Positions 30,210 through 49,708 of a stretch of DNA of 64,000 nt are shown here, piece by piece (the first letter of the stretch is position 1; each line of letters opens with the position of its first letter). The stretch is from an uncultured Cellvibrionaceae bacterium (GTDB lineage: Bacteria > Pseudomonadota > Gammaproteobacteria > Pseudomonadales > Cellvibrionaceae): contig CAZEWY010000001.1 in NCBI GenBank assembly GCA_964515945.1, positions 100-64,099 of the forward strand, read 5' to 3'. A model generated the notes under the pieces. It made no database searches, was not told the origin of the DNA, and was given only the letters and a program-made list of their open reading frames with translations. The position numbers and the translations under genes were made by a program.

Positions 30210-30365
30210 GGGAAAGGGGAAAGGAAAAAGGGAAAAGGGAAAAGGGAAAAGGGAAAAGGGAAAAGATTCGTGCCTCATCAAGGCTAGTGCATAAGTGTAT
30301 ATCGAACACTACCACTGATGCTATCGAACGCCTCGAGGCATCCACTTTTCCCTTTTCCCTTTTTA
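30210..30365. repeat. Composite intergenic element copy E1: (GGGAAAA)~8, an 80-bp core, then (TTTTCCC)~3
   Basis: Read directly. The left array is 30210-30265, the core starts GATTCGTGCC...TAGTGCATAAGTGTATATCG, and the right array is 30346-30365. Confidence 0.9.
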
Positions 30366-30442
30366 TCTCTCTCCACTCCAAACATGTTAAGCTCGCCGCT
30401 GTCACTCAACTATCCCCAGAACCCGCGAACAAGGAGCTTGTT

Positions 30443-30937
30443 ATGGCGAAGATCACTCTTAAAGGTAACCCTTTTGAAACCCTTGGCGATTTGCCGGCAA
30501 TCGGCAGCAAAGCGCCGGATTTTACGCTGGTAAAGCCGGACCTGTCGGAAGTCAGCCTGAAGAATTATGCCGGCCGGATTCTGATACTGAATATCTTCCC
30601 CTCCATAGACACCCCCACCTGCGCACTGTCGGTTCGGAAATTCAACGAGGAGGCTGCGCAGCAGGGGAATTTGACGGTACTCTGTGTGTCCGCGGATTTG
30701 CCTTTTGCCGCCGGTCGGTTCTGCGGCGCGGAAGGTATCGCCAACGTGGAAACCGGGTCCTCCTTCCGCTCGAGTTTTGCCAAGGACTATGGTGTGGGCA
30801 TCAAAAACGGTCCGCTGGCAGGGCTTCTGTCCCGTGCGGTCGTGGTTATTAATGAACAGGGCGAAGTCATCTATACGGAACAGGTACAGGAAACCGCCGA
30901 CGAACCGGATTACGACTCGGCACTGGCGGCGTTGTAA
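30443..30937 (+). CDS. tpx: Thiol peroxidase
   Basis: MAKITLKGNPFETLGDLPAIGSKAPDFTLV...IFPSIDTPTCALSVRKFNE. AAGGAG lies 6 nt upstream of ATG 30443. The upstream part of the track ORF only translates the repeat. Confidence 0.9.
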   Translation: MAKITLKGNPFETLGDLPAIGSKAPDFTLVKPDLSEVSLKNYAGRILILNIFPSIDTPTCALSVRKFNEEAAQQGNLTVLCVSADLPFAAGRFCGAEGIANVETGSSFRSSFAKDYGVGIKNGPLAGLLSRAVVVINEQGEVIYTEQVQETADEPDYDSALAAL

Positions 30938-30971
30938 CTATTTCGACAGAAACAGACCAGAAACAGGAATG

Positions 30972-31000
30972 AAAAAGCCGACCCAGTGTCGGCTTTTTTT
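30972..31000. terminator. Bidirectional intrinsic terminator between tpx and the esterase gene
   Basis: aaaaagccgac-ccagt-gtcggcttttttt. Confidence 0.75.
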
Positions 31001-31010
31001 GCGCCTAAAA

Positions 31011-32672
31011 TCAGTCCTTGATGATGCGCATTGATTCCAGCCATTCCAGTGCGCGCTCGGGCCAGGCAGAAGCCTGCTGATAGCCGGCCAGCAGGCCGAT
31101 GCCGTGGGGCGCGTTATTGTAAATCACCATTTCCACCGGCACCCCGGCTTCATGCACCGCCTGATAAAACGCGAGGCTGTTGTGCACCGGCACCGACTCA
31201 TCGTTGCCGCCGTGTATCAGGAATATCGGCGGCATGTCGGCGCGGGCCTGGGTTTCCAGGCTGTAGAATTCCAGCAGATCCTCACTCGGATTTTCACCCA
31301 GCAGCGCCGTGCGCGAGCCTTGGTGCGCATGGGGCGGATACATGGTGATGACCGGGTAAATCAGCAATCCGAAGTCCGGACGCGCACTGATTTTATTGAG
31401 ATGGCCGGGCATTATTTGCGCTGGCCAGTAGTCGAAGTGCGTCAGCAGCGAGGCGGCAACGTGGCCGCCCGCGGAAAAGCCAATCACGCCGATCTTGTTC
31501 GGGTGCAGGCGCCATTCCTTGGCGTGACTGCGCACCAGACGCAGTGCCTGCTGGGCGTCCAGCAAAGGTGCCGGCGCGCCGAATTCACGCATGCGGTATT
31601 TGACAATGAACGCGTGGATGCCATGACCATTCAACCAGTCGGCAACGGCCACTGCCTCCTTGTCTATGGCCAGTCGATGGTAGCCGCCGCCGGGGAAAAT
31701 CAACACACCCACGCCTTGGGCCGAGGCTGCGGGCGCCAGACGGGGAATAATTTCCGGCTCACGCACATTGTAGACCCGGTTGTCTTCCATGCGCTCCCGA
31801 CCCGGCAGCAGAGCCTCGACCGGTGGTGTTTGCGGCCATAATTTTATGGCCGGCATCGCTTCTGGCATTTCGGGTACCCCTTCGTAAAAATACCGGGCAA
31901 GTGGATGACCCTGTTCGCGCAGCTGTTGGACAAACATGCGCGCCACCCATAGAGCGCCCTTGGGCGACAGGTGGGTGTTGTCGATTTTCCCGTCCTTGTA
32001 CCCGGGATATTCACCGGGTTTGACATGCAAATACAAGCTGACCGATGACCCCGGCCCCATGTCCTGCAGTGATTGCCAGGTCAATGCCTGAAGATCCACC
32101 AGCGGGACATTCATGGCCTCGGCCACCTGGCGCATAGCATCCGGATAGTCGCCGTGGGTGGCAAGTAGTTTCCCCTGTGCATCAAAGTGGCGCCGGCAGA
32201 TGGAGGTCGCCAGAATGGGAATGGCACCTTTGGCGCGCGTCTCGGTCACATAGCGCCGCAGGTTCTCACTATAGGCGCCTCGCGGTGCGGTGTATCGGGT
32301 CGGATCCTGCTTTTTCTGATCATTGTGGCCAAACTGAATCAACAGGTAATCGCCCGGACGCAACTGGTCCAGCACCACCTGCCAGCGGCCCTCGTCGTAA
32401 AAACTTTTGCTGCTGCGACCGTTGACGGCATGGTTCTCCACCGTCAGTTGCGGTTTCGCCAGATCCGCCAGCGCCATACCCCAGCCGGTCTCGGGCGCCC
32501 GCTCCGGGATTTTGTTGGCCAGGGTCGAGTCGCCAATTAAAAAGATGCGCGCGCTACTGAGCGTAGCGTCGTCTGCTTCGCTTCCGGTTTTGTCCCTATC
32601 GGAGACCTGGGAGCAGCCGACGCATAAGATTGCCAGAACCAGGACGGGCAGTAGCTGTCTGACCAAATTCAT
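31011..32672 (-). CDS. Two-domain carbohydrate esterase lipoprotein: SGNH/GDSL hydrolase fused to an alpha/beta-hydrolase esterase
   Basis: Lipobox LAILCVGCSQ, SGNH block I FLIGDSTLANK, and a second domain with HGGG-like FPGGGY and nucleophile GFSAGGH. Confidence 0.8.
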   Translation of the reverse strand: MNLVRQLLPVLVLAILCVGCSQVSDRDKTGSEADDATLSSARIFLIGDSTLANKIPERAPETGWGMALADLAKPQLTVENHAVNGRSSKSFYDEGRWQVVLDQLRPGDYLLIQFGHNDQKKQDPTRYTAPRGAYSENLRRYVTETRAKGAIPILATSICRRHFDAQGKLLATHGDYPDAMRQVAEAMNVPLVDLQALTWQSLQDMGPGSSVSLYLHVKPGEYPGYKDGKIDNTHLSPKGALWVARMFVQQLREQGHPLARYFYEGVPEMPEAMPAIKLWPQTPPVEALLPGRERMEDNRVYNVREPEIIPRLAPAASAQGVGVLIFPGGGYHRLAIDKEAVAVADWLNGHGIHAFIVKYRMREFGAPAPLLDAQQALRLVRSHAKEWRLHPNKIGVIGFSAGGHVAASLLTHFDYWPAQIMPGHLNKISARPDFGLLIYPVITMYPPHAHQGSRTALLGENPSEDLLEFYSLETQARADMPPIFLIHGGNDESVPVHNSLAFYQAVHEAGVPVEMVIYNNAPHGIGLLAGYQQASAWPERALEWLESMRIIKD

Positions 32673-32869
32673 GCCGTTATATCCTCATATTTCGGTTTAT
32701 TTTCCGCAGATTAAACCATGGGAGGCCACACTTCCAGTCACCCACCCAGTTACTCGCCGGTTTAGTTACAGTCATTTTTACCATAATTGGTAAGACCATT
32801 AATCCCGTCCGGATTGCCAAATTCCACCAGAAGTGTTTAAATCACCTGCTCGGAAGGAGCTTAATCGGT

Positions 32870-34138
32870 ATGACCAAATATAACGCTTTCTATGGCCAAT
32901 CGGGTGGTGTCACGCCCGTTATCAATGCAACGGCCGCGGGAGTGATTGAGACAGCGCGCGAGCATCCCACTCGCATAGGCAAGGTCTACGCCGGTCTCGA
33001 CGGCATTGTGGGCGCGCTCCAGGAGAATCTGATTGATGTCAGTCTGGAAGAGGCGCAGAGCCTCGCCAGCCTGATTCATACACCTTCCGGTGCCTTTGGC
33101 TCCTGTCGCTACAAGCTGCAGGACCTCACCCGGCAGCGCGCCGAATACCAGCGTCTGCTGGATGTCTTCCAGGCCCATGACATTCGCTACTTTTTCTACA
33201 ACGGCGGCGGTGATTCCCAGGATACAACCTACAAGTTGTCGCAACTGGCCCGGGAGCTGGATTACCCGCTGACCTGCATCGGCATACCCAAAACCATCGA
33301 CAACGATCTGCCCCTGACCGACAACAGTCCGGGCTTCGGGTCGGTGGCGAAATATGTCGCCATTTCCACTCTCGAAGCCTCCTACGACGTTGAGTCCATG
33401 CATGGCAGTTCGACCAAGGTCTTTGTCATGGAGGTTATGGGGCGGCACACGGGCTGGATTGCCGCTGCCTCCTGTTTGGCTCGGGACGAGCGTGGGCTGG
33501 GGCCAGACCTCATACTGTTGCCGGAAGTCCAGTTTGATGCCGACAGCTTCCTCGACCGCATCAGTGAGACCGTGGCCAGCAAGGGCTTTTGCGTGGTAGT
33601 GGCCGCGGAAGGTATCAAGGGGGCCGATGGGAAATTTCTGTCGGAAGCCGGCGCCACTGATGCTTTTGGCCATGCCCAGCTTGGCGGCGTGGCGCCGCGT
33701 CTGGTCGATATGATCAAGCAGCGTCTGGATTTCAAATGCCATTGGGCTGTGTGCGATTACCTGCAACGCGCCGCCCGCCACGTCGCCTCGCAAACGGATG
33801 TGGATCAGGCTTATGCCGTAGGCGCGACCGCCGTCGATTACGCCATGCAAGGTCTCGATGCGGTCATGCCCGCCGTAGTCCGCGAGCAGGCCTCGCCCTA
33901 TCAGTGGACGCTGAAACCGGTGCCGCTGAGTGAAGTGGCCAATCGCGAAAAACCCCTGCCCCCCGAATTCATCAGTGAGGATGGTTTCGCCATCACCCCT
34001 GCCGGCCGCGATTATTTTGCACCGCTGATTCAGGGGGAGGCTTACCCGCCCTACAGGAACGGACTGCCGGACTATGGTCGGCTGAAGAAGAATCTGGTCA
34101 GGAAAAAGCTGGCCGATACCGTCAGCATTTCCTCCTGA
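32870..34138 (+). CDS. 6-phosphofructokinase, long (about 420 aa) type; ATP- versus PPi-dependence not decidable from sequence
   Basis: YGQSGGVTPVINATAAGV, FFYNGGGDSQDT, GIPKTIDNDL and MGRHTGWIA motifs. Confidence 0.85.
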   Translation: MTKYNAFYGQSGGVTPVINATAAGVIETAREHPTRIGKVYAGLDGIVGALQENLIDVSLEEAQSLASLIHTPSGAFGSCRYKLQDLTRQRAEYQRLLDVFQAHDIRYFFYNGGGDSQDTTYKLSQLARELDYPLTCIGIPKTIDNDLPLTDNSPGFGSVAKYVAISTLEASYDVESMHGSSTKVFVMEVMGRHTGWIAAASCLARDERGLGPDLILLPEVQFDADSFLDRISETVASKGFCVVVAAEGIKGADGKFLSEAGATDAFGHAQLGGVAPRLVDMIKQRLDFKCHWAVCDYLQRAARHVASQTDVDQAYAVGATAVDYAMQGLDAVMPAVVREQASPYQWTLKPVPLSEVANREKPLPPEFISEDGFAITPAGRDYFAPLIQGEAYPPYRNGLPDYGRLKKNLVRKKLADTVSISS

Positions 34139-34337
34139 CGATGCCTTTTCCTATTGATGGCAGCTCCTCCACGACATATTAGCGCCCGATATTCAGATGG
34201 TTGTACCTCTACCCATGTTTCACCCAATGTTTCCAATAAGTGTTCCACCGGTTCGGGTTCCCCACAGCCCGAACCAACCTTGACCTACCACTCAATAGAC
34301 GGACAAAAAGTCCGCGTCCAAACTCGCGAGGATACCC

Positions 34338-35387
34338 ATGACCCACATTGCCAGCCTACTTGGCGCTGAAGCCGAATCGCTGCTTGAGCACCGCTGCACC
34401 ACCATTCCCCGGAACATGATTACCAGCCCGGGGTCCGACTATATCGACCGCGCACTCTGCGCCACGGATCGCCCCTCGGCGGTGCTGCGCAATTACCAGT
34501 CCCTGCTCAGCGCCGGTCGGCTCGGGAACACCGGCTACATGTCCATTCTGCCGGTCGACCAAGGCATAGAACATTCCGCCGGCGCCACTTTCGCGCCCAA
34601 TCCGCTGTATTTCGACCCGAAGAATATTGTCGAACTGGCCATCGAGGGCGGCTGCAATGCCGTGGCTTCAACGTTGGGTGCGCTGGGCGCCGTTTCCCGC
34701 AACTATGCCCACAAGATTCCCTTCATCCTCAAGCTCAACCACAATGACGCCCTGGTGTACCCGTCCACCTACGACCAGACCCTGTTTGGCAAAGTGAAGC
34801 AGGCCTATGACATGGGCGCCATCGGCATAGGCGCCACCATTTATTTCGGTTCCGAACAGTCCCGACGCCAACTCCAGGAAATTTCCGAAGCCTTTCAGCA
34901 GGCCCACGAGTTGGGCATGGTCACTATCCTGTGGTGCTACCTGCGCAACAACGCTTTCAAAACCGACGAGGCGGATTTCCACACCTCCGCCGATCTGACC
35001 GGTCAGGCAAATTACCTGGGCGTCACCATTGAAGCCGATATCATCAAGCAGAAAATGGCGGAGACCAACGGCGGCTTCAACCGCATCAAGGTTGGCAAAA
35101 CCCACCCCAAGGTTTACAGCGAACTGACCACCGAGCACCCGATCGACCTGGTGCGCTACCAGGTAGCCAACTGTTACATGGGGCGCATCGGCCTGATCAA
35201 CTCCGGCGGCGCATCGGGCGACAACGATTTTTCCGAAGTGGTGCGCACCGCTGTTATCAACAAGCGCGCCGGCGGCATGGGGCTTATTTCAGGGCGCAAG
35301 GCATTTCAGCGCCCCTTCGACGAAGGCGTGAAGATTCTGCATGCTATTCAGGATGTGTATCTGGATAAAAGCATCACCATTGCCTGA
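34338..35387 (+). CDS. fbaB: Class I fructose-bisphosphate aldolase (FbaB/DhnA type)
   Basis: 349 aa with [20 protein letters not shown] and IIKQKMAE. The length and order match the FbaB family. Confidence 0.85.
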
Positions 35388-35393
35388 ACCCGC

Positions 35394-35454
35394 CCCCGGT
35401 CTTCCCATGTCCCTGTGGTGAGCTTTCGAGCAGTGAAGACCGGGGCCATTTTTC
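35394..35454 (+). terminator. Possible terminator after fbaB (11-bp stem, large loop)
   Basis: ccccggtcttc...(32 nt)...gaagaccgggg followed by ccattttt. Confidence 0.45.
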
Positions 35455-35524
35455 AACCGCAACACTTTTCATCCCGGGCAAAGCAGGCTATGGTTAAGGG
35501 TTTGTACAAGGTCCGAAATCTGCC

Positions 35525-35842
35525 ATGAAACCCTTGAAGACCAAAGCCCAGATTCGTGCCGAAATTGAGCAGCAGGTGAATGAATTCGTCCAGCAGGGCG
35601 GCGCCGTGCATGATATTCCTTCCGGCATCAGCGGCTACACCACCAACCAGAACCCCTTTGCCCATATGGTGATGTCCGGGCCACCGCAGCAACGCACGCC
35701 CCTGGTGGAAATCATCAAGCAGATAGACGCGCGGAAATCCCCCCGCCAGAACCCACTCAAAACCACCAAGCGCCGCCCGCGCCGCAAGTTGATCACGGAC
35801 GATTTTGGCGAACCCGTGCGCTGGGTCTGGGTGGAGGAGTGA
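35525..35842 (+). CDS. Small conserved-looking hypothetical protein with a highly basic C-terminal segment
   Basis: 105 aa: MKPLKTKAQIRAEIEQQVNEFVQQGGAVHDIPSG...KTTKRRPRRKLITDDFGEPVRWVWVEE. I am not sure of the family; it is faintly reminiscent of SutA-type RNAP-binding proteins. Confidence 0.55.
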   Translation: MKPLKTKAQIRAEIEQQVNEFVQQGGAVHDIPSGISGYTTNQNPFAHMVMSGPPQQRTPLVEIIKQIDARKSPRQNPLKTTKRRPRRKLITDDFGEPVRWVWVEE

Positions 35843-35850
35843 AGAGCCAA

Positions 35851-36015
35851 GGAAGGGAAAAGGGAAAAGAATATGGGGCCCCAAATAATCCGGTACTGCG
35901 ATCAGTGATAGTCCCCGGATGTTGTGGCACTACACTTGCGGAGGCGTGGATCTTTTCCCTTTTCCCTTTTCCCTTTTCCCTTTTCCCTTTTCCCTTTTCC
36001 CTTTTCCCTTTTCCC
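35851..36015. repeat. Composite intergenic element copy E2 (core inverted relative to E1/E3): (GGGAAAA)~2.5, core, then (TTTTCCC)9
   Basis: Read directly. Nine perfect TTTTCCC units span 35953-36015. The core is about 75% identical by eye to the reverse complement of the E3 core. Confidence 0.9.
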
Positions 36016-36017
36016 TT

Positions 36018-36194
36018 CTACACAACCCCCTGAAATTTGGCAAAGAGGTAGGCCACCACGGTGAGCAGGCCGAGGACGAGAAACACAATAGCCAGCAGGA
36101 GCAGGGGCCGGAAGGGCTTGCGCTCCACGTCATTGATATTGGAGGAGAGATAGCGGTCGACTCTTGCCTGATCTTCGGGGGAAAGTCTGGGCAT
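36018..36194 (-). CDS. 58-aa single-TM membrane protein (DUF3094-like), missed by the ORF track length cut-off
   Basis: My own translation is MPRLSPEDQARVDRYLSSNINDVERKPFRPLLLLAIVFLVLGLLTVVAYLFAKFQGVV*. The ATG is at 36194 and the stop is at 36020-36018. Confidence 0.6.
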   Translation of the reverse strand: MPRLSPEDQARVDRYLSSNINDVERKPFRPLLLLAIVFLVLGLLTVVAYLFAKFQGVV

Positions 36195-36233
36195 GTTTAT
36201 AACTCTCGCTAGTGAATATGAATTGCTGTTTCT

Positions 36234-36261
36234 GCTTACCGCTTACTGCTCCCAGCTTACC
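36234..36261. repeat. Degenerate heptamer array (GCTTACC)x4
   Basis: gcttacc gcttact gctccca gcttacc, between the 58-aa gene start and the ndh stop. Confidence 0.6.
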
Positions 36262-36272
36262 ATCCCCACTCC

Positions 36273-37565
36273 TCAGTGCAGTTTCAACCGCGGTCGCAGC
36301 CAGCGGTTGAGGCGACCGGCAAACATAAGCGCGCCGGTTTTTATCAGGCCGTGCACGGCCACCTGGTGCATCCGATAGAGGGAAATATAGACGGTCCGCG
36401 CGATGCGCCCTTCGATAAACAGGTCACCGCCGCGCAGATTGCCCATCAGGTTGCCCAGTGTCGAGTAGCGGGCCAGGGAAATCAAGGAGCCGTGGTCCCG
36501 GTATTCATAGGTTTTCAGGGGCTTTTCCTTCAGTATCGCAAGAAGGTTTTTATAACAGCAGTCGGCCATCTGGTGCGCTGATTGCGCCCGTGGCGGTACC
36601 CGCTTGCCGTCGGGCATGGTGAACTCGGCGCAATCGCCTATGGCAAAGATGGCGGGGTCGCGGGTCGTCTGCAGGAACTCATTCACGACAAGCTGGTTGA
36701 TGCGGTTACTCTCCAGCCCGGCGATATCCTTCATGAAGTTGGCCACCTTGACACCCGCCGCCCAGACAACCAGATCCGCCACGATGGTTTCGCCATACCG
36801 GGTGTGCAAAGCGCCACGGGTCGCTTCCGTGACTGGCGTATCCACCCGCACGTCAACACCCAAACGGCGCAGTTCATGGGTGGCCGACGCGGATATGCGT
36901 TCAGGCAATGCCGGCAGGATTCGCGGGCCCGCCTCCAGCAGGGTAATTTTCAATTGGCTGTTGTCGAGGGCATCAAAGCCGTAGCTGTGCACCTCGTCCA
37001 CGGCGTGATGAATTTCAGCTGACAGTTCCACCCCCGTGGCACCACCACCGACAATGGCGATGCGGATATCGCGATCCGATTCCGGCAGGCGCTGGATGCG
37101 CAAAAACTGATTGAAGAGTTTCTGACGGAAATAATGCGCCTGCTCGGGGCTGTCGAGAAAAATGCAGTGATCCTGTACGCCGGGCGTGCCGAAATCATTG
37201 GAGGTAGAGCCCAGTGCAAGAATCAGCAGATCATAATCAATGCGGGTAGTCGGCAGGACCTGCTCGCCCTCCTCATCCACCAGGGGCGCCAGAACCACCT
37301 GACGGGCTTCACGATCTATGCTGCTCATGGTGCCGACGCGGAAAGCGAAGCCATGCGCACGGGCATGGGCGCGATAACTGACCGCATCCACACCCTCGTC
37401 CATGGTACCCACGGCAATTTCGTGCAGCAGGGGTTTCCACAGATGCGTCGTATCGCGGTCGATCAGGGTAATATGGGCCTTGCCCTTCTTCCCTAGCTTG
37501 TCGCCGAGCTTTGTTACCAGTTCCAGACCACCGGCACCGCCGCCGACCACAACAATACGCGTCAC
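36273..37565 (-). CDS. ndh: Type II NADH:quinone oxidoreductase
   Basis: 430 aa with two dinucleotide folds, [13 protein letters not shown] and [12 protein letters not shown]. Confidence 0.9.
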
Positions 37566-37704
37566 ATATGACTCCTAGAGGTAATTAGCGCAAGCGGAAA
37601 ACTATACACCAGAAGAGGTCAGTAAAGAAATAATGCGCGCCAGAATCCGGCCTTCAATCGAGCCTATAGCCAAGCTATAGATCAGTGAAGCACCTATGGT
37701 CAGC

Positions 37705-38502: not shown

Positions 38503-38585
38503 CAATAGTGCTCCAGGCGGAAAATCAAGAGGCCGCACAATACCCGATCAAGTGAGCATGCTCAAGCGGGGCGGTGAGTGGGATG

Positions 38586-38655
38586 CTCTGCTTTCTGCTC
38601 TCTGCTCTCTGCTCCCTGCTTTCTGCTCACCGTTCACCAATCACCAATCACCATT
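38586..38655. repeat. Two abutting in-phase heptamer arrays: (YYCTGCT)x6 then (CACCRWT)x4
   Basis: ctctgct ttctgct ctctgct ctctgct ccctgct ttctgct caccgtt caccaat caccaat caccatt. The array ends 1 nt from the acyl-CoA dehydrogenase stop. Confidence 0.9.
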
Positions 38656-41426: not shown

Positions 41427-41445
41427 TTTGAGGGAATTATCTTCT

Positions 41446-41478
41446 CAAAAAGCCCGGACATAACTGTCCGGGCTTTTA
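41446..41478 (+). terminator. Intrinsic terminator after the usp gene
   Basis: aaaaagcccggaca-taac-tgtccgggctttta. Confidence 0.75.
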
Positions 41479-41554
41479 TAGAAAATCGCACTTCTATAAA
41501 CCATGACCAGAGATCTAAGCATCTGGTATCGGGGAGACATGAATCCGGCATTCA

Positions 41555-41697
41555 CTGTTGTGACACGCCGTGGGAAATCAGCAGGACAGCTGATTTACAC
41601 AGCGTAGCTGCCCGAAGGGCGAGCCACAGGGATGTGGCGAGTGAATACGTCCCTGTAGGCTCTGCACCAGCATCCATGCTGGTGACGGTCACAACAG
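41555..41697. repeat. REP/MITE-like multi-hairpin element R1 closed by 10-bp inverted repeats
   Basis: The termini are ctgttgtgac / gtcacaacag. Internal hairpins are aaatcagc/gctgattt, gagccacagggatgt/acgtccctgtaggctc and caccagcat/atgctggtg. Confidence 0.6.
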
Positions 41698-41783
41698 CAA
41701 ACACCGAATTCATGTCTTTGAAGTTTATGCAGTGAACTAACGCATGCACACATTGAAGGCCTGAACAAACTTAGGGCCGATTT

Positions 41784-41877
41784 GGGGTGGGAGCTTTCCA
41801 GGACCGTCGCCCGCAGGGATGCGGGCGCAGAGCCCCCAGGGATGGGTCCACGGCGTGTCCTGGAAAGCCCCCACCCC
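41784..41877. repeat. REP-like element R2: 21-bp inverted repeat arms around a core homologous (inverted) to the R1 core
   Basis: The arms are ggggtgggagctttccaggac / gtcctggaaagcccccacccc. The core gcagggatgcgggcgcagagcccccagggatgggtccac aligns with the reverse complement of R1 at 41621-41684. Confidence 0.6.
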
Positions 41878-41911
41878 GAAACGGACCGGCGAACGAAGCC
41901 GCTTCTAGGGA

Positions 41912-42601
41912 CTAAGGAGAGATCGAAAGCTTCGCCAAATCCAGATAGCCGGCCACCGCTTCTGGAGTTGGCTGTGGCAGGAAAGGCACTTCACCGAGGC
42001 AGGGTGCCGCCAGGGCGCCGCGCAGGGTTTCCAGATTGCCTGCCAGCGCCGGCATATCCGCTTCCACCTGACTGGCTACCCAACCGGCAATTTTGACGCC
42101 GTCGCGCATTATGGCTTCCTGGGTCAGGAACGCGTGATTGAGGCAGCCAAGCCGCACCCCCACCACCAGAATCACCGGAATATCCAGCGCCTGGGGCAGT
42201 CCCGCCAGCGTCTCCCGCTCATTGAGCGGCATGCGCCAGCCGCCCGCCCCCTCGATCAGACGGAGATCCGCCTTGTTCATCAATGTGCCGCGACAGAATC
42301 CGACCAGCCTGTCCAGACTGAGCCGACGGCCGAGGTCTGCCGCGGCCAGATGAGGCGCAATGGGTTCGGCCAGGGCGACCGGATTGACCTGCTCATAGTC
42401 CAGTTCCACCGTCATGGCCGCCTGCAACGCCAGTGCATCCTCATTGCGCAGCCCTTCCGGCGTTGCCTCGCAGCCTGCCGCCAGCGGCTTCATGGCCAGC
42501 GTGGTCAGTTGCTGTTGACGGGCCGCGTGCAGCAGCCCTGCCGTGACCAGGGTTTTGCCGACGCCGGTATCGGTGCCGGTTACAAAAAAGGTTCGGGACA
42601 T
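41912..42601 (-). CDS. bioD: Dethiobiotin synthase
   Basis: FFVTGTDTGVGKT P-loop, 229 aa, last gene of the bio operon. Confidence 0.9.
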   Translation of the reverse strand: MSRTFFVTGTDTGVGKTLVTAGLLHAARQQQLTTLAMKPLAAGCEATPEGLRNEDALALQAAMTVELDYEQVNPVALAEPIAPHLAAADLGRRLSLDRLVGFCRGTLMNKADLRLIEGAGGWRMPLNERETLAGLPQALDIPVILVVGVRLGCLNHAFLTQEAIMRDGVKIAGWVASQVEADMPALAGNLETLRGALAAPCLGEVPFLPQPTPEAVAGYLDLAKLSISP

Positions 42602-42624
42602 GATTTTGCTTACTCGTGTTCTGG

Positions 42625-44232
42625 TTAGCGCGGCTTGCGGGCCAGCAGGTAGTAAACCTGATAGGTCGCGGGCAATTTGCCGTCGGCACCGCGAAATTCC
42701 TCATAGGCCTGGGACAACTGGCGCAGGTAACCCGGCGCTGTCAGGCCATGGTTCTGGCTGCTGTTAACGTTGTGCGCTCCCAAAGCTTTCAATTCCCGCA
42801 ACAACTGATTGAGTTGCTCGTAGCGCGGCACTACTGGCTCCTCTGCGAATAACTCGACCTGCAAGCCGGCCTCAATCAGAGTCCGTTCCAGCTCCGCTGC
42901 GGAGGTAAAGTTATTGACATGGGTGTAGGCATCAACCGCTTCCCAGGCGCTGCGCAATTCGTGCAGGGTTTCCGGCCCCAGAGTGGATAGCAGCAGCCAG
43001 CCATCCGGCTTCAGGCAGTCGGAGACGGCGCTGAATAGTCGCGGTAAATCTTCGCTCCATTGCACCGTCAGACTGGAAACAACGCCGGAAAAACAATTGT
43101 CGCGAAACGGCAGCTGTTCGGCGTCGGCACAGACCCAATGGAGGTCGTGGTGTGGCATCAGTTTCTGTCGCGCCTTGTTGAGCATGCCCGGCGCTATATC
43201 CAGACCGGTGACCTCGGCACCCTTTCCTCGGAAATAGTCGCTGCAGAAACCTGTCCCGCAACCGATGTCGAGCAGCGCTTCGCCCCGGTTGATGAGTGGC
43301 GCCTGCTTCAGCAGACGTGCACCCACTTGAGTTTGCACATGGGCGACGCTGTCATAGGTGTCGGCGGCGCGGCTGAAGGAGCGCGCCATGCGCTGTTTGT
43401 CGATGGTTGAAGTGGGCGGCGGCGTTTCCAGGAAACGGCGCATGTGCCGCGCCACTTCCTCTGTGTGGCTAAGATGGGGGGCGTGACCGGATCCGGCAAT
43501 GGTGACGATACGACCGGATGAAACCTGCCCCAGGGCTTGCGCGGCGGGCGCCGGTACCAGCGCATCCTCCTCGCCAAACAGATGCAGCAAAGGCGCCGTC
43601 ACCTCACCCAGTTCCTGACGATGATCCATCTGGGCCAGCCAATCGAGAGCAGCCTGCCATTGGGCAAGCTGGCCAGGCGCCGGCGCCGCGCACTGCTCGC
43701 GCAGATCCCGAAGCAGCGTCTTGCGCTGGCTGTCGCCTTGGGCCTGCAAGCCACAGAAGCGCTTGAGGGTGGCGGTGGGATCCGAATCGAAGGCCTGGGC
43801 AAAATCCCTGAAAGTTGCGGGTGGCATGGCGTGGGGCCAGGCAGGGTCGGCGACAAAGCGGAGGTTGGTGGCCAGGGTAATGACACCGGCAATCCTGTGC
43901 GGCTGCCGCGCCGCCAGACGCAGTGCCAGATGGCCGCCCAGGGACCAGCCGATGAGAATACACCGGTCGGGCAAGAGTTCCGCCATGAGAGCCAGCGCGT
44001 CCTCAAGTTCCGGCAGTTGCCAATCCGCATTGGCGCCGAAGCCCGGCAGGTCCAGGTTATAGATATCCTGCCGCCGGACAAGATCGGGCAAGAGAGCTTG
44101 CCAGCATTGCCGACTGTGGCCCCAGCCATGCAGCAGCATCAGCGGCGGTCTGCCACAAGGTTCGGTTGCCGGCAGAAATTCCATGGCCATCTCTTTACAC
44201 GAAGATTGTGCAGACGCGGTTTGTCCCCCCAT
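42625..44232 (-). CDS. Fused BioH-like pimeloyl-ACP methyl ester esterase (N-terminal) and BioC malonyl-ACP O-methyltransferase (C-terminal)
   Basis: A single 535-aa ORF. The N-terminal half has LMLLHGWG, nucleophile GWSLGG and GHAPHL. The C-terminal half has KQRMARSFSRAADTYDSVAHVQ and the SAM motif LLDIGCGTG. The start overlaps the bioF stop (TGATG). Confidence 0.8.
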   Translation of the reverse strand: MGGQTASAQSSCKEMAMEFLPATEPCGRPPLMLLHGWGHSRQCWQALLPDLVRRQDIYNLDLPGFGANADWQLPELEDALALMAELLPDRCILIGWSLGGHLALRLAARQPHRIAGVITLATNLRFVADPAWPHAMPPATFRDFAQAFDSDPTATLKRFCGLQAQGDSQRKTLLRDLREQCAAPAPGQLAQWQAALDWLAQMDHRQELGEVTAPLLHLFGEEDALVPAPAAQALGQVSSGRIVTIAGSGHAPHLSHTEEVARHMRRFLETPPPTSTIDKQRMARSFSRAADTYDSVAHVQTQVGARLLKQAPLINRGEALLDIGCGTGFCSDYFRGKGAEVTGLDIAPGMLNKARQKLMPHHDLHWVCADAEQLPFRDNCFSGVVSSLTVQWSEDLPRLFSAVSDCLKPDGWLLLSTLGPETLHELRSAWEAVDAYTHVNNFTSAAELERTLIEAGLQVELFAEEPVVPRYEQLNQLLRELKALGAHNVNSSQNHGLTAPGYLRQLSQAYEEFRGADGKLPATYQVYYLLARKPR

Positions 44233-45500
44233 CAGGCATCACCGCCATTGGTAGTGAATTTATCCGCCGCCAGAGTCGCCGGTTCGCCAGCAACCTCGGC
44301 CAGGGCATTCAACAGCTCGGCCACCTGCTCCGCGCCGTGCTCGGCACTCAGGGTAACGCGCAAACGCGCAGTGCCGGCGGGCACCGTGGGCGGGCGTATG
44401 GCCGACACCCAGAAGCCCCGGTCTTCAAGCGCCTGGGAAACGGCCAAAGCTTTGGCCTGGCTACCGAGAATAATGGGTTGAATGGGGGAGATGGAATCCA
44501 TCAGTCTCAGGCCCATCTGCGCCGCACCCCGGCGAAATTGTTCTATCAGCCCCTGTAAATGCGCCCGCCGCCAGCCTTCCTCCTGCAGGAGTTTCAGGCT
44601 GGCGCGAGTGGCGGCGGCCACCGCCGGCGGCAGGGCCGTGGTGTAGATATAGCTGCGGGAAAACTGGATCAGGGTTTCAATGAGGGTTTCACTGCCGGCC
44701 ACGAAAGCGCCGAACGTGCCGAAGGCCTTGCCAAGCGTGCCCACCAATATCGGAAGCTGGTCCTGAGTCAGCGCGAAGTGCTCAGCGCAGCCGCCGCCGT
44801 TAGTACCCAGACAGCCGAAGCCGTGAGCGTCGTCCACCATCAACCAGGCTTTGTGGGTATCGGCCAATTGCGCCAGTGCCGGCAGCGGCGCGGTGTCACC
44901 ATCCATGCTGAAGACACCATCCACCACGATCAGCTTACGCTCTGCCTGCGAGTTTTCCAGGCGCGCCCGCAGGTGCTCCAGGTCGTTGTGTTGAAAACGC
45001 TGAAACCGGGCGCCACTCAGCAGCCCGGCGTCCAGCAGCGATGCATGATTGAGCTTGTCCTCGAAGATGGCGTCACGGCGGCCGATCAGAGCATTGACCG
45101 CACCCAGGTTGGCCATATAGCCAGTGGAAAACAGCAGCGCCCTCTCCCGCCCCGTGAAAGCCGCCAGTTCCTCTTCCAGGGCGTGGTGTTCGCTGGAGTG
45201 CCCGCTGACCAGATGCGAGGCTCCGCTGCCGACACCGTAGTGATCCACAGCGTGCCGGAACGCCTCTTTGACCTTCGGGTGATTCGCCAGCCCCAGATAG
45301 TCATTGCTGCAAAAACACAGCAGTGACTTGCCATCCACATGCAAATGCGTCTGCTGGGGGGACGCAACCATGCGGCGCCGGCGGTAGAGATCCGCAGCGC
45401 GTCTTTCATTCAGGGCTGTTTGCAGGGCTGTGTCTATATTCAAGACCGGGTCTCGCCGAGGGTGCGAAGTTGCTGGGAGGGACACCCGTGAAGGTGGCAT
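44232..45500 (-). CDS. bioF: 8-amino-7-oxononanoate synthase
   Basis: [13 protein letters not shown] and the PLP-lysine region [12 protein letters not shown]. The N-terminal start is uncertain (45500 or an internal TTG). Confidence 0.9.
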
Positions 45501-45540
45501 CCCGCTGGCCAGGGCCTGCTGTTAACAGGCCCCGCAAAAA

Positions 45541-46632
45541 TCAGGGCGCGGCGTTATAGAAGACGGCGTCCATCTGCTGCTCGACCAGTTTTTCGTTCAC
45601 CTTGTTCACCAGTGCCTCTGCCTGCTCTTCCTCCGTGTGCGCCTGCTCGTAGCGCTCGGGCTGAATGCCGAGACGCTTGAACAGTTGCATGTCCTTGTTG
45701 GTTTCCGGGTTGGCGGTAGTCAGCAGTTTTTCACCGTAGAAAATGGAATTGGCGCCGGCCAGAAACGTCATGGCCTGCATCTGGTCATTCATCTGCTCGC
45801 GGCCGGCGGACAGGCGCACGTGAGAGGCCGGCATCAGGATGCGGGCCACGGCAATGGTGCGGATAAAATCGAAGGGGTCCAGATCGGCCTGATCCGCCAG
45901 AGGCGTGCCCTCCACTTTCACCAGCATATTGATGGGCACGGATTCGGGGTGCTCGGGCATATTGGCGAGCTGCATCAGCAGGCCGGCGCGGTCGCTCTCC
46001 TCTTCACCCATGCCAACAATGCCGCCGCAGCAGACCTTCATGCCGGCGCCGCGCACATTGGCCAGCGTGTTGAGGCGATCCTGGTAGGTGCGGGTGGTGA
46101 TGATGTCACCGTAGAATTCCGGTGAGGTGTCCAGATTGTGGTTGTAGTAGTCCAGACCGGCCTCGGCCAGGTCCGTCGCCTGCTGCTCGTTGAGCATACC
46201 CAGCGTCATGCAGGTTTCCAGGCCGAGAGATTTCACGCCCTTCACCATCTCGGTGACATAGGCCATGTCCTTGGCCTTGGGCGAGCGCCAGGCGGCGCCC
46301 ATGCAGAAACGGGTGGCGCCGCCGGCCTTGGCGGCTTTGGCTTCCTCGATGACCTTCTCCACCGCCATCAGCTTTTCCCGCTCCAGGCCCGTATCGTAGC
46401 GGGCGCTTTGCGGGCAGTAGGCGCAGTCTTCGGGGCAGGCGCCGGTTTTGATGGAGCAGAGAGTGCTGACCTGCACGGTGTTGGGGTCGAAAAACTGGCG
46501 GTGAACCGTCTGCGCACGGAACATCAGGTCACTGAAAGGCAGTGCGAAAAGCTGGCTGATTTCATCCCGGGACCAATCGTGGCGTATCTGTGGCTGATTC
46601 GGCAGCTCGCCAACTGAAACCTTGTTGTTCAT
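45541..46632 (-). CDS. bioB: Biotin synthase
   Basis: Radical-SAM [11 protein letters not shown], then [12 protein letters not shown] and YNHNLDTS. I chose ATG 46632, with GGAG upstream. Confidence 0.95.
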
Positions 46633-46720
46633 AGAATCTCCGTCATCCAATACCCTGGGACCACCTGGACTTGTTCGGAGGTTCCCTTTGAGGGCACAAT
46701 CATAGGGTAAGGCGAGAAAC

Positions 46721-46751
46721 TGTCAACCAAAAAAGGACTTTAAGGTTTACT
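46721..46751. promoter_or_regulatory. bioO-like BirA operator
   Basis: TGTCAACC-N15-GGTTTACT resembles the E. coli bioO half sites TGTAAACC/GGTTTACA. It lies upstream of bioB. Confidence 0.5.
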
Positions 46752-46752
46752 G

Positions 46753-47487
46753 ATGCACAAAATGGACTTTTCAGCCGGTCTCCGGCTCGTCACCGAATCT
46801 CTCAGCACACCTCTCCACAAGCTGCTGCCCAATCACTGCTACCTCTGCGGCGATATCAGCCGGGAATTCCTCTGCCCCGGCTGCCGCGCCGATCTGCCCA
46901 CACACGACGAGGCCTGCCGTTGCTGCGCATTGCCGGTGGCGGATAATGGGGACCTGCTGCTATGCGGCGACTGCCTCAAATACCCCAAACCCTTCGACCG
47001 CACCCTGGCTGCGTTCACCTATGGCCATCCGCTCGACTTCCTGATCAACCGCTTCAAACACCATCGCCATTTCACCTGCGGCAACTACCTGAGCAAGCAT
47101 TTAGTGTCCGCAGTACAAGCGGCCTACGCCGGACAAAAGCTGCCGGACCTACTGCTGCCCATGCCCCTGCACTGGACCCGCCATTTCAAGCGCGGTTTCA
47201 ACCAGAGCCATGTCATCGCCAGCCAGCTTCACAAAAAGCTGGCAATTCCCCTGGCTCACCACTGCCGCCGCCTGAAACGCAACCCCCGCCAGCAGGGCCT
47301 GAAGCGCAAGGAGCGACTGCGCAACCTGACCGACGCCTTCGCCGTGGACGGCAGACTGGACGGGTATCACGTGGCACTGGTCGACGATGTCATGACTACC
47401 GGCGCCACAGTGACCGAAGTCAGCCACTGCCTGCGACAGGCCGGCGCGGCAAGGGTGGATGTGTGGGTATTGGCGAGGGTCCCGTAG
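46753..47487 (+). CDS. comF: ComF-family protein (amidophosphoribosyltransferase-like)
   Basis: N-terminal Cys pairs CYLCG...CPGC...CCALP...CGDC and the PRT motif VALVDDVMTTGATV. Confidence 0.8.
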   Translation: MHKMDFSAGLRLVTESLSTPLHKLLPNHCYLCGDISREFLCPGCRADLPTHDEACRCCALPVADNGDLLLCGDCLKYPKPFDRTLAAFTYGHPLDFLINRFKHHRHFTCGNYLSKHLVSAVQAAYAGQKLPDLLLPMPLHWTRHFKRGFNQSHVIASQLHKKLAIPLAHHCRRLKRNPRQQGLKRKERLRNLTDAFAVDGRLDGYHVALVDDVMTTGATVTEVSHCLRQAGAARVDVWVLARVP

Positions 47488-47499
47488 GAAAAAAACATA

Positions 47500-47653
47500 G
47501 GGAAAAGGGAAAAGGGAAAAGATTCGTGCCGCTGCTAGTGTAGTGCATAAATATATATCGGGGACTGTCACTGGTCGCGTTGCCGGACTGTTCAGGGCCT
47601 CATATTCTTTTCCTTTTCCCTTTTCCCTTTTCCCTTTTCCCTTTTCCCTTCCC
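47500..47653. repeat. Composite intergenic element copy E3: (GGGAAAA)3, an 86-bp core, then (TTTTCCC)~6.5
   Basis: Read directly. The core starts GATTCGTGCCGCTGCTAGTGTAGTGCATAAATATATATCGGGGACTGTCACTGG... Confidence 0.9.
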
Positions 47654-47701
47654 TAAGCCTGTTACAATCACCGCACTTATTTCCCGACGCCCGGAGCGAC
47701 T

Positions 47702-48757
47702 GTGGATCACGACAACGACGACTTGGGGAACCAGTTTCTGGATGACGCCGATACACCCGAGCCCAGCGCGGAGGAAACGCCCTATGCCGCTCTAAGTCCG
47801 GATGTTGTGCTGGATGCGGTGGAAAGTCTCGGTTTTGTGTCGGACGCGCGTATCTATCCGCTCAACAGTTATGAAAACCGCGTCTATCAGGTGGGGCTGG
47901 AGGACGAGCAGCCGCTGATTGCCAAGTTCTATCGGCCCCATCGCTGGAGCGATGGACAGATCCATGAAGAGCATCAGTTTTCGCAACATCTGGCGGAGCT
48001 GGATATTCCCGTTGTCCCCCCCATGGAAATTGATGGCCGCAGCCTGTTTCGCTACAGCGTGGCTGACACTGAATTCCGCTTCGCGCTCTATATCCGCAAG
48101 GGCGGCCAGGCGCCTGAGCTGGACAACGACGACAATCTCTATACTCTCGGCAAGCACATAGGCCGCATTCATAATCTGGGCAGGGAGACGCAGTTCACCC
48201 ACAGACCGGAACTCAATGTCGACACCTTCGGCATGGCTAGTCGCGATTTTTTGCTGGCCAACAATTTTATTCCGCCTTCGCTATTGGAATCCTACGGGAC
48301 ATTGAGTCAACACTTGCTGGAAAAATGTCAGGTGGCTTTTGAGCGTATCGACTATCAAAAAATTCGCCTGCACGGTGACTGCCACCCCGGCAATATTCTC
48401 TGGCGCGATGAAGCGCCGAATTTCGTCGATCTGGATGATTCCCGCAATGGCCCCGCCATCCAGGATTTATGGATGCTGCTCTCGGGCAACCGGGAACGCC
48501 AAACCCAGCAACTGGGCCATGTGCTGGACGGCTATGAAGAATTCTGCGATTTCAATCGTGCGGAATTGTCACTGATTGAAGGTCTGCGCAGCCTGCGCCT
48601 GATGCATTACGCGGCCTGGCTGGCCAAGCGCTGGCAGGACCCGGCCTTCCCCCAGGCATTCCCCTGGTTTAATACAGAACGCTATTGGGCGGAGCATATT
48701 CTGGAGCTGCGCGAACAAATGTCGGCCATGGATGAGCCACCGCTGAAAGCGCTGTAA
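47702..48757 (+). CDS. srkA: Stress-response Ser/Thr kinase (SrkA/YihE/RdoA family)
   Basis: NSYENRVYQV, LIAKFYRPHRWS and the catalytic RLHGDCHPGNILW...FVDLDD, 351 aa. The start is GTG. Confidence 0.8.
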   Translation: MDHDNDDLGNQFLDDADTPEPSAEETPYAALSPDVVLDAVESLGFVSDARIYPLNSYENRVYQVGLEDEQPLIAKFYRPHRWSDGQIHEEHQFSQHLAELDIPVVPPMEIDGRSLFRYSVADTEFRFALYIRKGGQAPELDNDDNLYTLGKHIGRIHNLGRETQFTHRPELNVDTFGMASRDFLLANNFIPPSLLESYGTLSQHLLEKCQVAFERIDYQKIRLHGDCHPGNILWRDEAPNFVDLDDSRNGPAIQDLWMLLSGNRERQTQQLGHVLDGYEEFCDFNRAELSLIEGLRSLRLMHYAAWLAKRWQDPAFPQAFPWFNTERYWAEHILELREQMSAMDEPPLKAL

Positions 48758-48759
48758 AA

Positions 48760-49089
48760 ATGAGCGGGAAGAAGGAAACTCTCTGGCAGCTCTACCTGGT
48801 ACGCTGCGGCGACGGCAGCCTCTACACCGGCATTGCCGCCGATCTGGAACGGCGTATTGCCGAGCACCAGAGCCAGGGTCCAAAGTGTGCGAAGTATCTG
48901 CGCGGCCGCGCACCACTGGAATTGGTTTTCAATATTGCCGTCGAAGACAGGGCTCAGGCAAGCCGTTGGGAATATCGGGTGAAGCAATTGAGCAAGGCGG
49001 ACAAAGAGGCCCTGGTAGCCGGCAAAAAATCCTTGAGCTTATTATTGGAGTCCACCAAAGTTCCTGAAAAACAAATGTCAGAATCATGA
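48760..49089 (+). CDS. GIY-YIG nuclease-family protein (YhbQ-like)
   Basis: WQLYLVRCGDGSLYTGIAADLERRIAEH...RWEYRVKQLSK, 109 aa. Confidence 0.8.
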   Translation: MSGKKETLWQLYLVRCGDGSLYTGIAADLERRIAEHQSQGPKCAKYLRGRAPLELVFNIAVEDRAQASRWEYRVKQLSKADKEALVAGKKSLSLLLESTKVPEKQMSES

Positions 49090-49499
49090 TCACCGTCAAT
49101 CACCAGATCGCCATCGATGAATCCGAAATTGATATTCAGGCCATACGCTCCCAGGGCGCCGGTGGCCAGAACGTCAACAAGGTTTCCTCAGCCGTGCATC
49201 TGCGCTTTGATATCAAGGCGTCGTCTCTCGCCGATGAATTCAAGGAGCGCCTGCTGAAGTTCAACGACCAGCGCATCACCATCGACGGCATTATCGTCAT
49301 CAAGGCTCAGGAACATCGCAGCCAGCTCAAAAACCGACAGGACGCCATCGGCCGCCTTTGCGATTTGATTCGCCAGGCCACCACCAAACCCAAAAAACGC
49401 CGCCCCACCCGCCCGACAAAAGCGTCAAAGGAGCGGCGGTTGAAGCAGAAAAACGTCAGAAGCGGACACAAACAGATGCGGGGGAAGGTGGATTTTTAG
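49086..49499 (+). CDS. arfB: Alternative ribosome-rescue factor ArfB (peptidyl-tRNA hydrolase)
   Basis: GGQ motif RSQGAGGQNVNKVSSAVHLRF and a basic C-terminal tail KPKKRRPTRPTKASKERRLKQK. Confidence 0.9.
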   Translation: MITVNHQIAIDESEIDIQAIRSQGAGGQNVNKVSSAVHLRFDIKASSLADEFKERLLKFNDQRITIDGIIVIKAQEHRSQLKNRQDAIGRLCDLIRQATTKPKKRRPTRPTKASKERRLKQKNVRSGHKQMRGKVDF

Positions 49500-49505
49500 G
49501 TGATA

Positions 49506-49708
49506 GGGAAAAGGGAAAAGGGAAAAGAAGTATACACTAAGTGACTTCGTAGCCTGGGTTAGCCGTAGGTTGGATAAGACGGGAGTTCCGCGACCGTCGC
49601 CATCCAACATGGGTTGAAAGCCCACTGAAAGCATGTTTCGGCGGAAGGCGTCCAGGCTTTTCTGCCCTACAAGGTTCGGCGGTATATTTTTCCCTTTTCC
49701 CTTTGCCC
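49506..49708. repeat. Composite intergenic element copy E4: (GGGAAAA)3, a divergent 160-bp core with REP-like hairpin, then (TTTTCCC)~3
   Basis: The arms are at 49506-49527 and 49688-49708. The core contains gttggat...atccaac and gacgg...ccgtc hairpins. Confidence 0.8.

Follow-up and report, generated by a model that had tools for sequence, protein, structure and literature searches.

A paired GGGAAAA heptamer-array repeat at gene ends in a Cellvibrionaceae genome: a new example of a described but unexplained class

Tandem arrays of heptanucleotides have been known in bacteria since 1990, from the STRR (short repetitive sequences repeated in tandem) of cyanobacteria, and since 2007 as the most over-represented long simple sequence repeats (SSRs) in many bacteria. 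The cyanobacterial heptamers were reportedly described by Mazel in 1990, and Vioque is said to have found in 1997 that STRR units lengthen both strands of helix P12 of the RNase P RNA; to our knowledge, STRR have mostly been described as single arrays. Further examples of heptamer arrays come from Geobacter and Beggiatoa, and the 2007 work of Mrazek, as far as it is summarised in PMC4679880, treats heptanucleotide arrays as a known class of long SSRs. Why the period is seven, how the arrays spread and what role they play remain unexplained for the class. Here we describe four intergenic elements, E1 to E4, in a stretch of 64,000 nt (the window) from an uncultured Cellvibrionaceae bacterium (GenBank assembly GCA_964515945.1, contig CAZEWY010000001.1, positions 100 to 64,099). 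All positions are numbered along the whole 64-kb window unless a comparison locus is named; such loci, from other genomes, are designated L followed by a number. The elements are real and non-random, and they are a new example, with the unit GGGAAAA and a Cellvibrionaceae host, of this described but unexplained class.

The closest described counterparts are the arrays of GGGAATC in Xanthomonas and of GGGGAYT in Nostoc, which are tandem, intergenic and 2 to more than 20 units long (Rehm 2015, PMC4692102). According to the same study, the arrays are found no farther than 50 bp from stop codons, are under-represented between divergent genes and are mostly transcribed; each genome holds 70-75 convergent pairs of arrays on opposite strands, and retention between species is 83%, with lengths changing. 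Arrays of four units are preferred, such oligonucleotides fold into G-quadruplexes in vitro, and the function is unknown (Rehm 2015, PMC4692102). The first-pass annotation of the window presented E1-E4 as an unrecognised family. That description goes too far, since convergent pairs of G-rich heptamer arrays no more than 50 bp from stop codons had already been reported for GGGAATC (PMC4692102).

Like the Xanthomonas pairs, E1-E4 are built of G3 heptamers, form convergent pairs of the same unit (4/4 in the window), lie close to stop codons and are kept at orthologous sites with a change in length (E2 and L040; E3 and L167, L163); turnover and empty sites are found here as well. The spacer between paired arrays was not analysed by Rehm 2015, whereas the spacers studied here contain core families, apparent exchange between sites, and nested repeats. 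The two systems also differ in unit (GGGAAAA), in host (Cellvibrionaceae and about 30 other assemblies) and in pairing, as many Xanthomonas arrays stand alone and each of the eight GGGAAAA/TTTTCCC arrays of the window has a partner. With STRR and other heptanucleotide SSRs the elements share a period of exactly 7, lineage-specific units, intergenic location and several unit families per genome. If the geometry of P12 is as reported, heptamers build a stem in both, with different unit sequences and in a different host phylum. E1-E4 are best read, by this analogy, as corresponding in Cellvibrionaceae to the convergent GGGAATC pairs of Xanthomonas and to the cyanobacterial STRR. We think four things are new here: arms and cores behave as modules at orthologous sites, elements nest, polarity is strict, and the same unit occurs in about eight phyla.

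On inspection of the sequence, in every element GGGAAAA units make up the left arm and TTTTCCC units the right arm, on either side of a core of 80-160 nt (Table 1). The four copies and their architecture were found at the positions first reported for them. The unit numbers given at that stage, strongly asymmetric at about 8/3, 2.5/9, 3/6.5 and 3/3, agree with the left/right counts of Tandem Repeats Finder (TRF), which were 8.4/2.7 for E1, 2.4/9.4 for E2, 3.3/6.4 for E3 and 3.3/3.3 for E4. The proposal of a real, multi-copy family was likewise upheld: a two-unit probe, GGGAAAAGGGAAAA, matched the window 25 times with at most one mismatch, against 0.01 matches expected from shuffles, and all 25 matches were confined to E1-E4. 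About 35 exact arm units are present in the window. Seven exact arrays of at least three units were found in it, every one with period 7, and the other periods from 4 to 12 gave none. Over 17-23 nt the two arms of each element are 95-100% complementary, and the pairing of arms that had been anticipated appears as the closing stem in the predicted folds of all four (-52.7, -61.5, -52.5 and -88.6 kcal/mol for E1 to E4).

An origin by chance or assembly artefact was rejected, as a Logan contig from an independent assembly is identical to E2 base for base up to the end of that contig, inside the E2 right arm. Logan short-read contigs of the same or sister strains (the end of L160, the start of L163, and L161, L162 and L168) also end inside arms. 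A practical consequence is that the arms break short-read assemblies, and because heptamer arrays fragment such assemblies they will be under-counted in metagenome-assembled genomes (MAGs).

All four elements occupy non-coding DNA between Pfam-supported genes. Each lies directly after a stop codon, as was originally noted, with gaps (from open reading frames and Pfam) of 8 nt between omp85 and E1, 8 nt between sutA and E2, 11 nt between comF and E3, and 5 nt between arfB and E4. On the other side, the right end of E2 abuts the stop codon (36018) of a DUF3094 gene that is convergent, 34 nt separate E4 from the stop codon of rlmB, also convergent, and E1 is flanked by two genes that both read left to right. 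Crude gene calls across the family gave 22 convergent, 24 co-directional and 7 divergent contexts.

A search for more copies, proposed in the first-pass annotation, was carried out on one genome per species (185,579 species) with the pattern (GGGAAAA)2-N71-131-(TTTTCCC)2. It returned 79 loci in 31 assemblies from about eight phyla, compared with our random-sequence estimate of about 0.001 loci, so the family is not confined to the window. The assemblies include two Cellvibrionaceae, the MAG GCA_964419935 (19 loci) and Exilibacterium (10 loci), and others from Clostridia, Gemmatimonadota, Planctomycetota, Armatimonadota, Acidobacteriota, Bacteroidota, Betaproteobacteria, Lysobacterales and four cyanobacteria. 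Other heptamer units are arrayed in the same genomes, and at the array-bearing loci the density is 221 arrays per Mb. Relatives of the window's srkA protein, at about 65% identity, belong to Teredinibacter, Gilvimarinus and Marinagarivorans. No heptamer array was found in 1.25 Mb from relatives at 61-66% amino-acid identity, which were located in metagenomes by means of the acyl-CoA dehydrogenase and serve as a negative control, not as close comparators. A phage origin was rejected on the grounds that a scan of 2.9 million viral contigs gave no match.

The polarity of the arms is strict. Adjacent pairs ran from left arm to right arm in 87 cases and in the reverse order in 0, among loci that had themselves been gathered by a left-then-right pattern. 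Leaving GGGAAAA aside, heptamers with an inverted partner had the purine-rich arm on the 5' side in 13/13.

The cores fall into more than one family. The conserved core claimed for all four elements was recovered for E1, E3 and the reverse complement of E2, which are homologous beyond chance, and not for E4, whose core is of a different family. E1 and E3 are identical at 55/80 positions (z = 12.7-15.3), and E3 and reverse-complemented E2 at 62/83 (75%, z = 21.9-24.6); in forward orientation the comparison of E2 with E3 gave z = 2.1. These scores agree with the earlier description of the E1 and E3 cores as colinear and of the E2 core as their reverse complement at about 75% identity. Its corollary, a core that flips within arms of fixed polarity, does not follow from them. 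When (GGGAAAA)n-core-(TTTTCCC)m is reverse-complemented it gives (GGGAAAA)m-rc(core)-(TTTTCCC)n, and E2 is therefore the whole element in opposite orientation, with no separate flip of the core. Identity among the paralogous cores of E1-E3 is 69-75%. The family thus occupies three loci of the window, and it occurs also in L015. The left and middle parts of the E1 core resemble E3 and its right end resembles L015, so that by sequence similarity the E1 core looks mosaic.

The E4 core (161 nt) is unrelated to those of E1-E3 (z about 1 or lower) and is homologous to the core of L070, from a Cellvibrionaceae MAG (z = 11.2). A search of the window for further cores of the E1 or E4 type lacking arms found none. 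A large BLAST cluster of cores across phyla was linked mainly through residual degenerate heptamers, and cross-phylum sharing of cores was not accepted. When E1, E3, reverse-complemented E2 and L015 were folded jointly with RNAalifold (4 sequences), the result was the arm stem and 3 pairs besides it, and compensatory changes were absent; a reading of the E1-type core as a structured RNA is unsupported, there being no conserved fold beyond the arm stem in these four sequences. The Rfam search gave no match at the gathering threshold. At E-values of 1 or below the hits were solely to plant miRNA hairpin models, with 21-30 bits against thresholds of 64-99.

The E4 core contains a nested repeat, a hairpin with a GTAG head that resembles repetitive extragenic palindromic (REP) sequences. 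It has the form GTAGGTTGGATAAGACGG...CCGTCGCCATCCAAC and occurs, besides the window copy, at L040 4320-4400, L167 about 12088-12135 and L163 about 2075-2110. Between the window and the MAG it is far better conserved than the E4 core around it. REP sequences and bacterial interspersed mosaic elements (BIMEs) are short palindromic extragenic repeats at gene 3' ends, for which roles in termination and in the stability of mRNA 3' ends have been proposed. A REP module is one imperfect palindrome, 20-35 nt long and headed by GTAG, that REP-associated tyrosine transposases (RAYTs) mobilise. E1-E4 are like REP, BIME and REPIN elements in their position at gene 3' ends, their inverted conserved modules around a less conserved spacer, their hairpin form and their old, diverged copies. 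They differ in that their arms are 7-nt arrays of variable number, and the GTAG hairpin is confined to the E4 core, where it is a passenger. We did not assign the elements to the REP/REPIN group, since the arms are simple tandem heptamers. CRISPR arrays were rejected too, as the units here are 7 nt, contiguous and in inverted pairs, compared with repeats of 23-50 nt separated by unique spacers. The initial view that the elements resemble neither REP, enterobacterial repetitive intergenic consensus (ERIC) sequences, BIME nor CRISPR is accordingly sound for CRISPR, ERIC and BIME, and needs amending for the REP-like hairpin in E4.

The first-pass annotation had also recommended comparing orthologous intergenic regions, and the comparison revealed both presence/absence variation and arm turnover among relatives. 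Four states were seen at orthologous sites. Some relatives have the same arms around an unrelated core; in others the arms are built of a different heptamer or are nested, or the site is empty. At the E2 site of the MAG (L040; sutA 73% amino-acid identity), GGGAAAA/TTTTCCC arms of 3 + 3 units enclose an unrelated core within the same tiny convergent spacer. At the E3 site, L167 (MAG) has decayed GGGAAAA arms and a core of which the first 12 nt (GATTCGTGCCGC) are shared with E3 and the remainder is unrelated (z = 0.4), the flanking genes being 71-78% identical in nucleotide sequence. L163 begins inside the TTTTCCC arm of this site. L169, which by srkA is nearest to the window (85% nucleotide identity), carries (TGCAAGC)/(GCTTGCA) arms, and L164 carries (GAGTAAT)2 ... 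(CCATCAC)7. The site is empty in L165 and L166, with 25-40 nt from the comF stop codon to a conserved TACAAT, and in more distant relatives, among them L153, which has a short hairpin at its otherwise empty comF-srkA site. The two arrays of L164 (529-650) are complementary at 5/7 positions; their mismatches read A·C on plus-strand RNA, and minus-strand RNA would have G·U wobbles there, a single case from which no conclusion is drawn.

At the E4 site of L169 (11781-11870) an (AGCTGCA)4.5 ... (GCTTGCG)2 hairpin stands alone and intact, in L167 (12025-12470) AGCTGCA-type outer arms surround a decayed GGGAAAA-armed core with the REP hairpin, and in the window the right remnant of an AGCTGCA-type outer hairpin is kept beyond E4. 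L163 (1873-2171) retains the left arm and the start of the core and has no right arm; synteny is lost exactly there, a SASA-domain gene coming next, and from this break armed elements may be rearrangement points. L164 and L165 are empty at this site. Nested arms occur also in L073 and L005: armed elements nest inside one another.

Judged from these alignments, arms and cores are separate modules, because the arms are perfect while paralogous cores are 69-75% identical, and because the same arms enclose unrelated cores at orthologous sites. Resemblance among the paralogous cores of E1-E3 is far closer than that between E3 and its positional orthologue in L167, although both genomes have arms at the E2 and E3 sites. 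Two readings of this similarity are possible, namely copying between armed sites by way of arm homology, or repeated re-insertion at the same gene ends. Since the arm homology is identical at both ends and in both orientations, it would also explain the inverted E2. Within genomes, core identity is 74-96% over the aligned parts and mostly 75-86%; no full-length near-identical core pair was found within any sampled genome, so there has been no recent burst of copying. We infer that some process keeps the arms uniform, slippage inside each array being the simplest candidate.

Our favoured explanation, to which we assign a probability of roughly 0.5, is that E1-E4 are non-coding, non-autonomous palindromic intergenic repeats with arms kept uniform by slippage, cores exchanged between sites, and a role as terminators or 3'-end hairpins. 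Slipped-strand mispairing within each array would account for growth, shrinkage and uniformity of the arms, which would offer identical homology at both ends of an element and in both orientations. Cores could then be copied between sites that are already armed, in either orientation, by gene conversion or re-insertion. Other small repeats (the REP hairpin, further armed elements) are seen to nest inside armed elements. RNA from either strand would read (GGGAAAA)n, core, (UUUUCCC)m and could form a long stem in several pairing registers, in which GGG:CCC closes the stem and a surplus 3' unit would place UUUU directly after it. Each AAAAGGG/CCCUUUU unit would thereby approximate one junction of A-tract, stem base and U-tract of a bidirectional intrinsic terminator. 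The elements may thus replace terminators, or protective 3'-end hairpins, at the ends of omp85, sutA/DUF3094, comF and arfB/rlmB.

A terminator or 3'-end hairpin function comparable to that of REP and BIME is, from position and anatomy, probable. The elements stand where terminators are expected, a canonical terminator scan of 30-50 kb found its sole site elsewhere (30972-30998), and TACAAT is conserved after the E3 site in five genomes (the window, L163, L164, L167 and L169); a terminator-like role is suggested for these reasons. Bidirectional intrinsic terminators share with E1-E4 the order of A-tract, GC stem base, loop, GC stem base and U-tract, the same on both strands, as well as the location after stop codons and between convergent genes. 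They differ in having a loop of 3-8 nt where the elements have a core of 80-160 nt, and the U run of the elements is 4 nt long and repeated.

Several observations weigh against this explanation. The consensus terminator scan flagged no canonical intrinsic terminator at any of the E1-E4 sites, and their loops exceed the canonical length by far. The surplus units of E1 are on its 5' arm even though both neighbouring genes read left to right; surplus 3' units as a U-rich tail fit E3 and fail for E1, so this argument does not suit every copy. The heptamers GGGAATC, AGCTGCA and CCATCAC have no U4 run, and the idea of repeated terminator junctions consequently cannot explain the class as a whole. 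L165 and L166, with their empty sites, show that the comF end can do without the element. The pattern ascribed to gene conversion would equally result from repeated independent insertions into one and the same short spacer. The favoured explanation is silent on why the period is 7 and why one unit dominates a genome, and the proposed terminator or stabiliser role is purely inferential, being read from the sequence.

The elements might instead be classical MITEs (miniature transposable elements with inverted repeats), a possibility that we consider unlikely but that accounts for much of what was seen. The arrays would be terminal inverted repeats (TIRs) with multiple sites for a transposase encoded elsewhere, and transposition, either cut-and-paste or copy-in, would spread the elements into gene 3' ends or hairpin loops, selfishly and with no role for the host. 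Bacterial MITEs such as Nezha, Chunjie and the Correia elements are 100-250 bp long, bounded by TIRs, intergenic and multicopy. E1-E4, at 150-200 bp, resemble them in size, in TIRs, in intergenic multicopy occurrence, in hairpin folding and in presence/absence variation. The first-pass annotation saw neither TIRs nor target-site duplications (TSDs); the arms are TIRs by construction, which overturns the former statement, and the latter stands, no consistent duplication having been found. One core family at three window loci and in L015 agrees with transposition, as do the nesting inside other hairpins and the variable presence of E3 and E4 among relatives of similar divergence, clean empty sites included. 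In a Clostridiales MAG the complex arm pattern GGCAACA-GGGAAAA-GGGAAAA-GGAATAG recurs between copies, implying that arms and core were copied together, and TA stands on both flanks of E3 and of several MAG copies, as for an IS630/mariner target.

The ends of the elements are harder to reconcile with transposition. Across 28 copies from the window, the MAG and Exilibacterium, no constant direct repeat flanks the element, though the arm ends are fuzzy enough to hide a 2-nt duplication; just a few of the copies have TA on both flanks. The arms, of 2-17 units, are variable and asymmetric simple-sequence arrays, unusual for transposase ends, and they persist at orthologous sites with unrelated cores. 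A cognate transposase was not seen either: no transposase domain was present among the 30 window proteins scanned, and no arm pair 0.4-6 kb apart enclosing an open reading frame was found in 596 kb of loci. The lack of near-identical copies noted above leaves no sign of recent transposition, and in Xanthomonas the arrays have no association with insertion sequence (IS) elements (Rehm 2015, PMC4692102).

Improbable, in our judgement, is a functionless by-product of mutation, in which a hairpin stalls replication, slippage makes 7-nt duplications, template switching copies them to the other arm, and the longer hairpin stalls more. Such a process would suit the unrelated hairpin cores that share one architecture in different genomes, the different heptamers of sister lineages at the same site, the short hairpin of L153, and arms in which, as in the left arm of E1, the innermost units are perfect and the outermost degenerate. 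It would also draw on the proposal of Mrazek, to the extent that it is summarised, that 7 nt is the contact length of the polymerase. However, local origin predicts a different unit at each locus, and GGGAAAA fills all four sites of the window and most sites of the MAG. Homologous cores at different loci require copying between loci, and slippage alone does not predict the strict polarity with the purine arm 5'.

G-quadruplex formation had been proposed for the longer arms. This was borne out as a sequence pattern for E1-E3, in each of which one arm has at least 5 units and (G3A4)n matches the G3N1-7 pattern. It is not universal, as E4 has 3 units per arm and 23/84 members of the family have fewer than 4 units on both arms. 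As an account of the elements, taken as G-quadruplex elements or quadruplex/hairpin switches in which an arm with at least four G3 tracts would fold in DNA or RNA, compete with the hairpin and modulate neighbouring transcription, termination or translation, it seems to us quite improbable. Among 84 elements the arm unit number (range 2-17) peaks at 4, with 51 arms at 4 units, 34 at 3 and 19 at 5; the same preference, with quadruplex folding in vitro, is known for GGGAATC (Rehm 2015, PMC4692102). The peak is weak, the excess of 4-unit over 3-unit arms having p of about 0.08 by our rough binomial estimate. A perfectly complementary C-rich arm 80-160 nt away favours the duplex, the AGCTGCA, GAGTAAT and CCATCAC arms at the same sites have no G tracts, and the heptamer repeats of the earlier study could not be linked to gene regulation (Rehm 2015, PMC4692102).

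It is very improbable, in our estimation, that E1-E4 belong to a pan-bacterial system of modular non-coding cassette sites, in which dedicated machinery (a recombinase or transposase specific to the arms, or a templated enzyme adding 7 nt) would keep the arms perfect and cores would be swapped in either orientation in the manner of integron cassettes; the chance of such arm-maintaining machinery is small, and it would matter if true. Highly improbable, finally, are binding sites for a lineage-specific protein, either an RNA-binding one (a GGA binder of the CsrA type, Hfq or ribosomal protein S1) or a nucleoid or regulatory DNA-binding protein reading units spaced by 7 bp: GGGA is common to heptamers of unrelated phyla (GGGAAAA, GGGAACA, GGGAAGA and GGGAAAC here, also GGGAATC, GGGGAYT and GGGACCG), one unit dominates each genome, and binding of S1, Csp or CsrA was proposed for TAACTGA arrays (MacGregor 2015), but the predicted folds tie up the G-rich arm in the stem, relatives use units lacking GGGA at the same sites, and no candidate protein emerged.

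The window is a compact test case for the class, with four paired arrays in 20 kb at defined gene ends and relatives that hold alternative states of the same sites. The series of sites offers constructs for assays of termination and RNA stability, and a natural series for the study of arm slippage and core exchange. Coordinates are collected in Table 1.

Table 1. Coordinates of the E1-E4 components and adjoining features in the window
Feature	Position	Strand	Remarks
Upstream stop codons	omp85 30200; sutA 35842; comF 47487; arfB 49499		
E1 left arm	30209-30265	+	About 8 GGGAAAA units; outermost 3 degenerate, inner 5.7 exact
E1 core	30266-30344	+	E1/E3 family; right end resembles L015 core (Cellvibrionaceae MAG)
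E1 right arm	30345-30365	+	2.7 TTTTCCC units, then TTTTTA
E2 left arm	35851-35869	+	2.4 units
E2 core	35870-35951	-	E1/E3 family, whole element inverted; 75% identity to E3 core
E2 right arm	35952-36017	+	9.4 exact TTTTCCC units; abuts DUF3094 stop codon at 36018
E3 left arm	47499-47521	+	3.3 units
E3 core	47522-47606	+	E1/E3 family
E3 right arm	47607-47653	+	6.4 units; ends 9 nt before conserved TACAAT (47663-47668) upstream of srkA
E4 left arm	49505-49527	+	3.3 units
E4 core	49528-49687	+	Other family, homologous to L070 and L167 cores
E4 nested hairpin	49565-49608	+	REP-like, GTAG-headed; recurs in L167 and L163, and in L040, where it lacks heptamer arms
E4 right arm	49688-49710	+	3.3 units, the last being TTTGCCC
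Remnant outer right arm of older (AGCTGCA)n/(TGCAGCT)n-type hairpin	49721-49748	+	Overlaps rlmB stop codon

Other repeats were noted in the window. Directly after the stop codon of a minus-strand acyl-CoA dehydrogenase gene, at 38586-38653, there are adjacent unpaired arrays of (CTCTGCT), about 6 units, and (TCACCAA), about 3 units, which are absent at the L169 site. An unpaired (GTAATGA)4.3 array at 3119-3148 is found a short way upstream of a start codon on the minus strand. L164 has this unit in the left array of its comF-srkA site, and in its position the window array is reminiscent of Beggiatoaceae, where TAACTGA arrays stand upstream of start codons.

Between usp and bioD are two MITE-like repeats (41535-41717 and 41774-41887) with TIRs of 30-31 nt. 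They match non-orthologous loci of the MAG (L003 6007-6097 and L015 3136-3246), and an orthologous longer copy is present at L169 4065-4230. An HNH endonuclease gene is located at 23456-24172, followed by a 9-nt repeat in four copies (24185-24220), with several short open reading frames of low GC3 close by. Inside dxs, which encodes DXP synthase, an in-frame 27-nt tandem repeat of 2.9 copies occupies 26964-27041.

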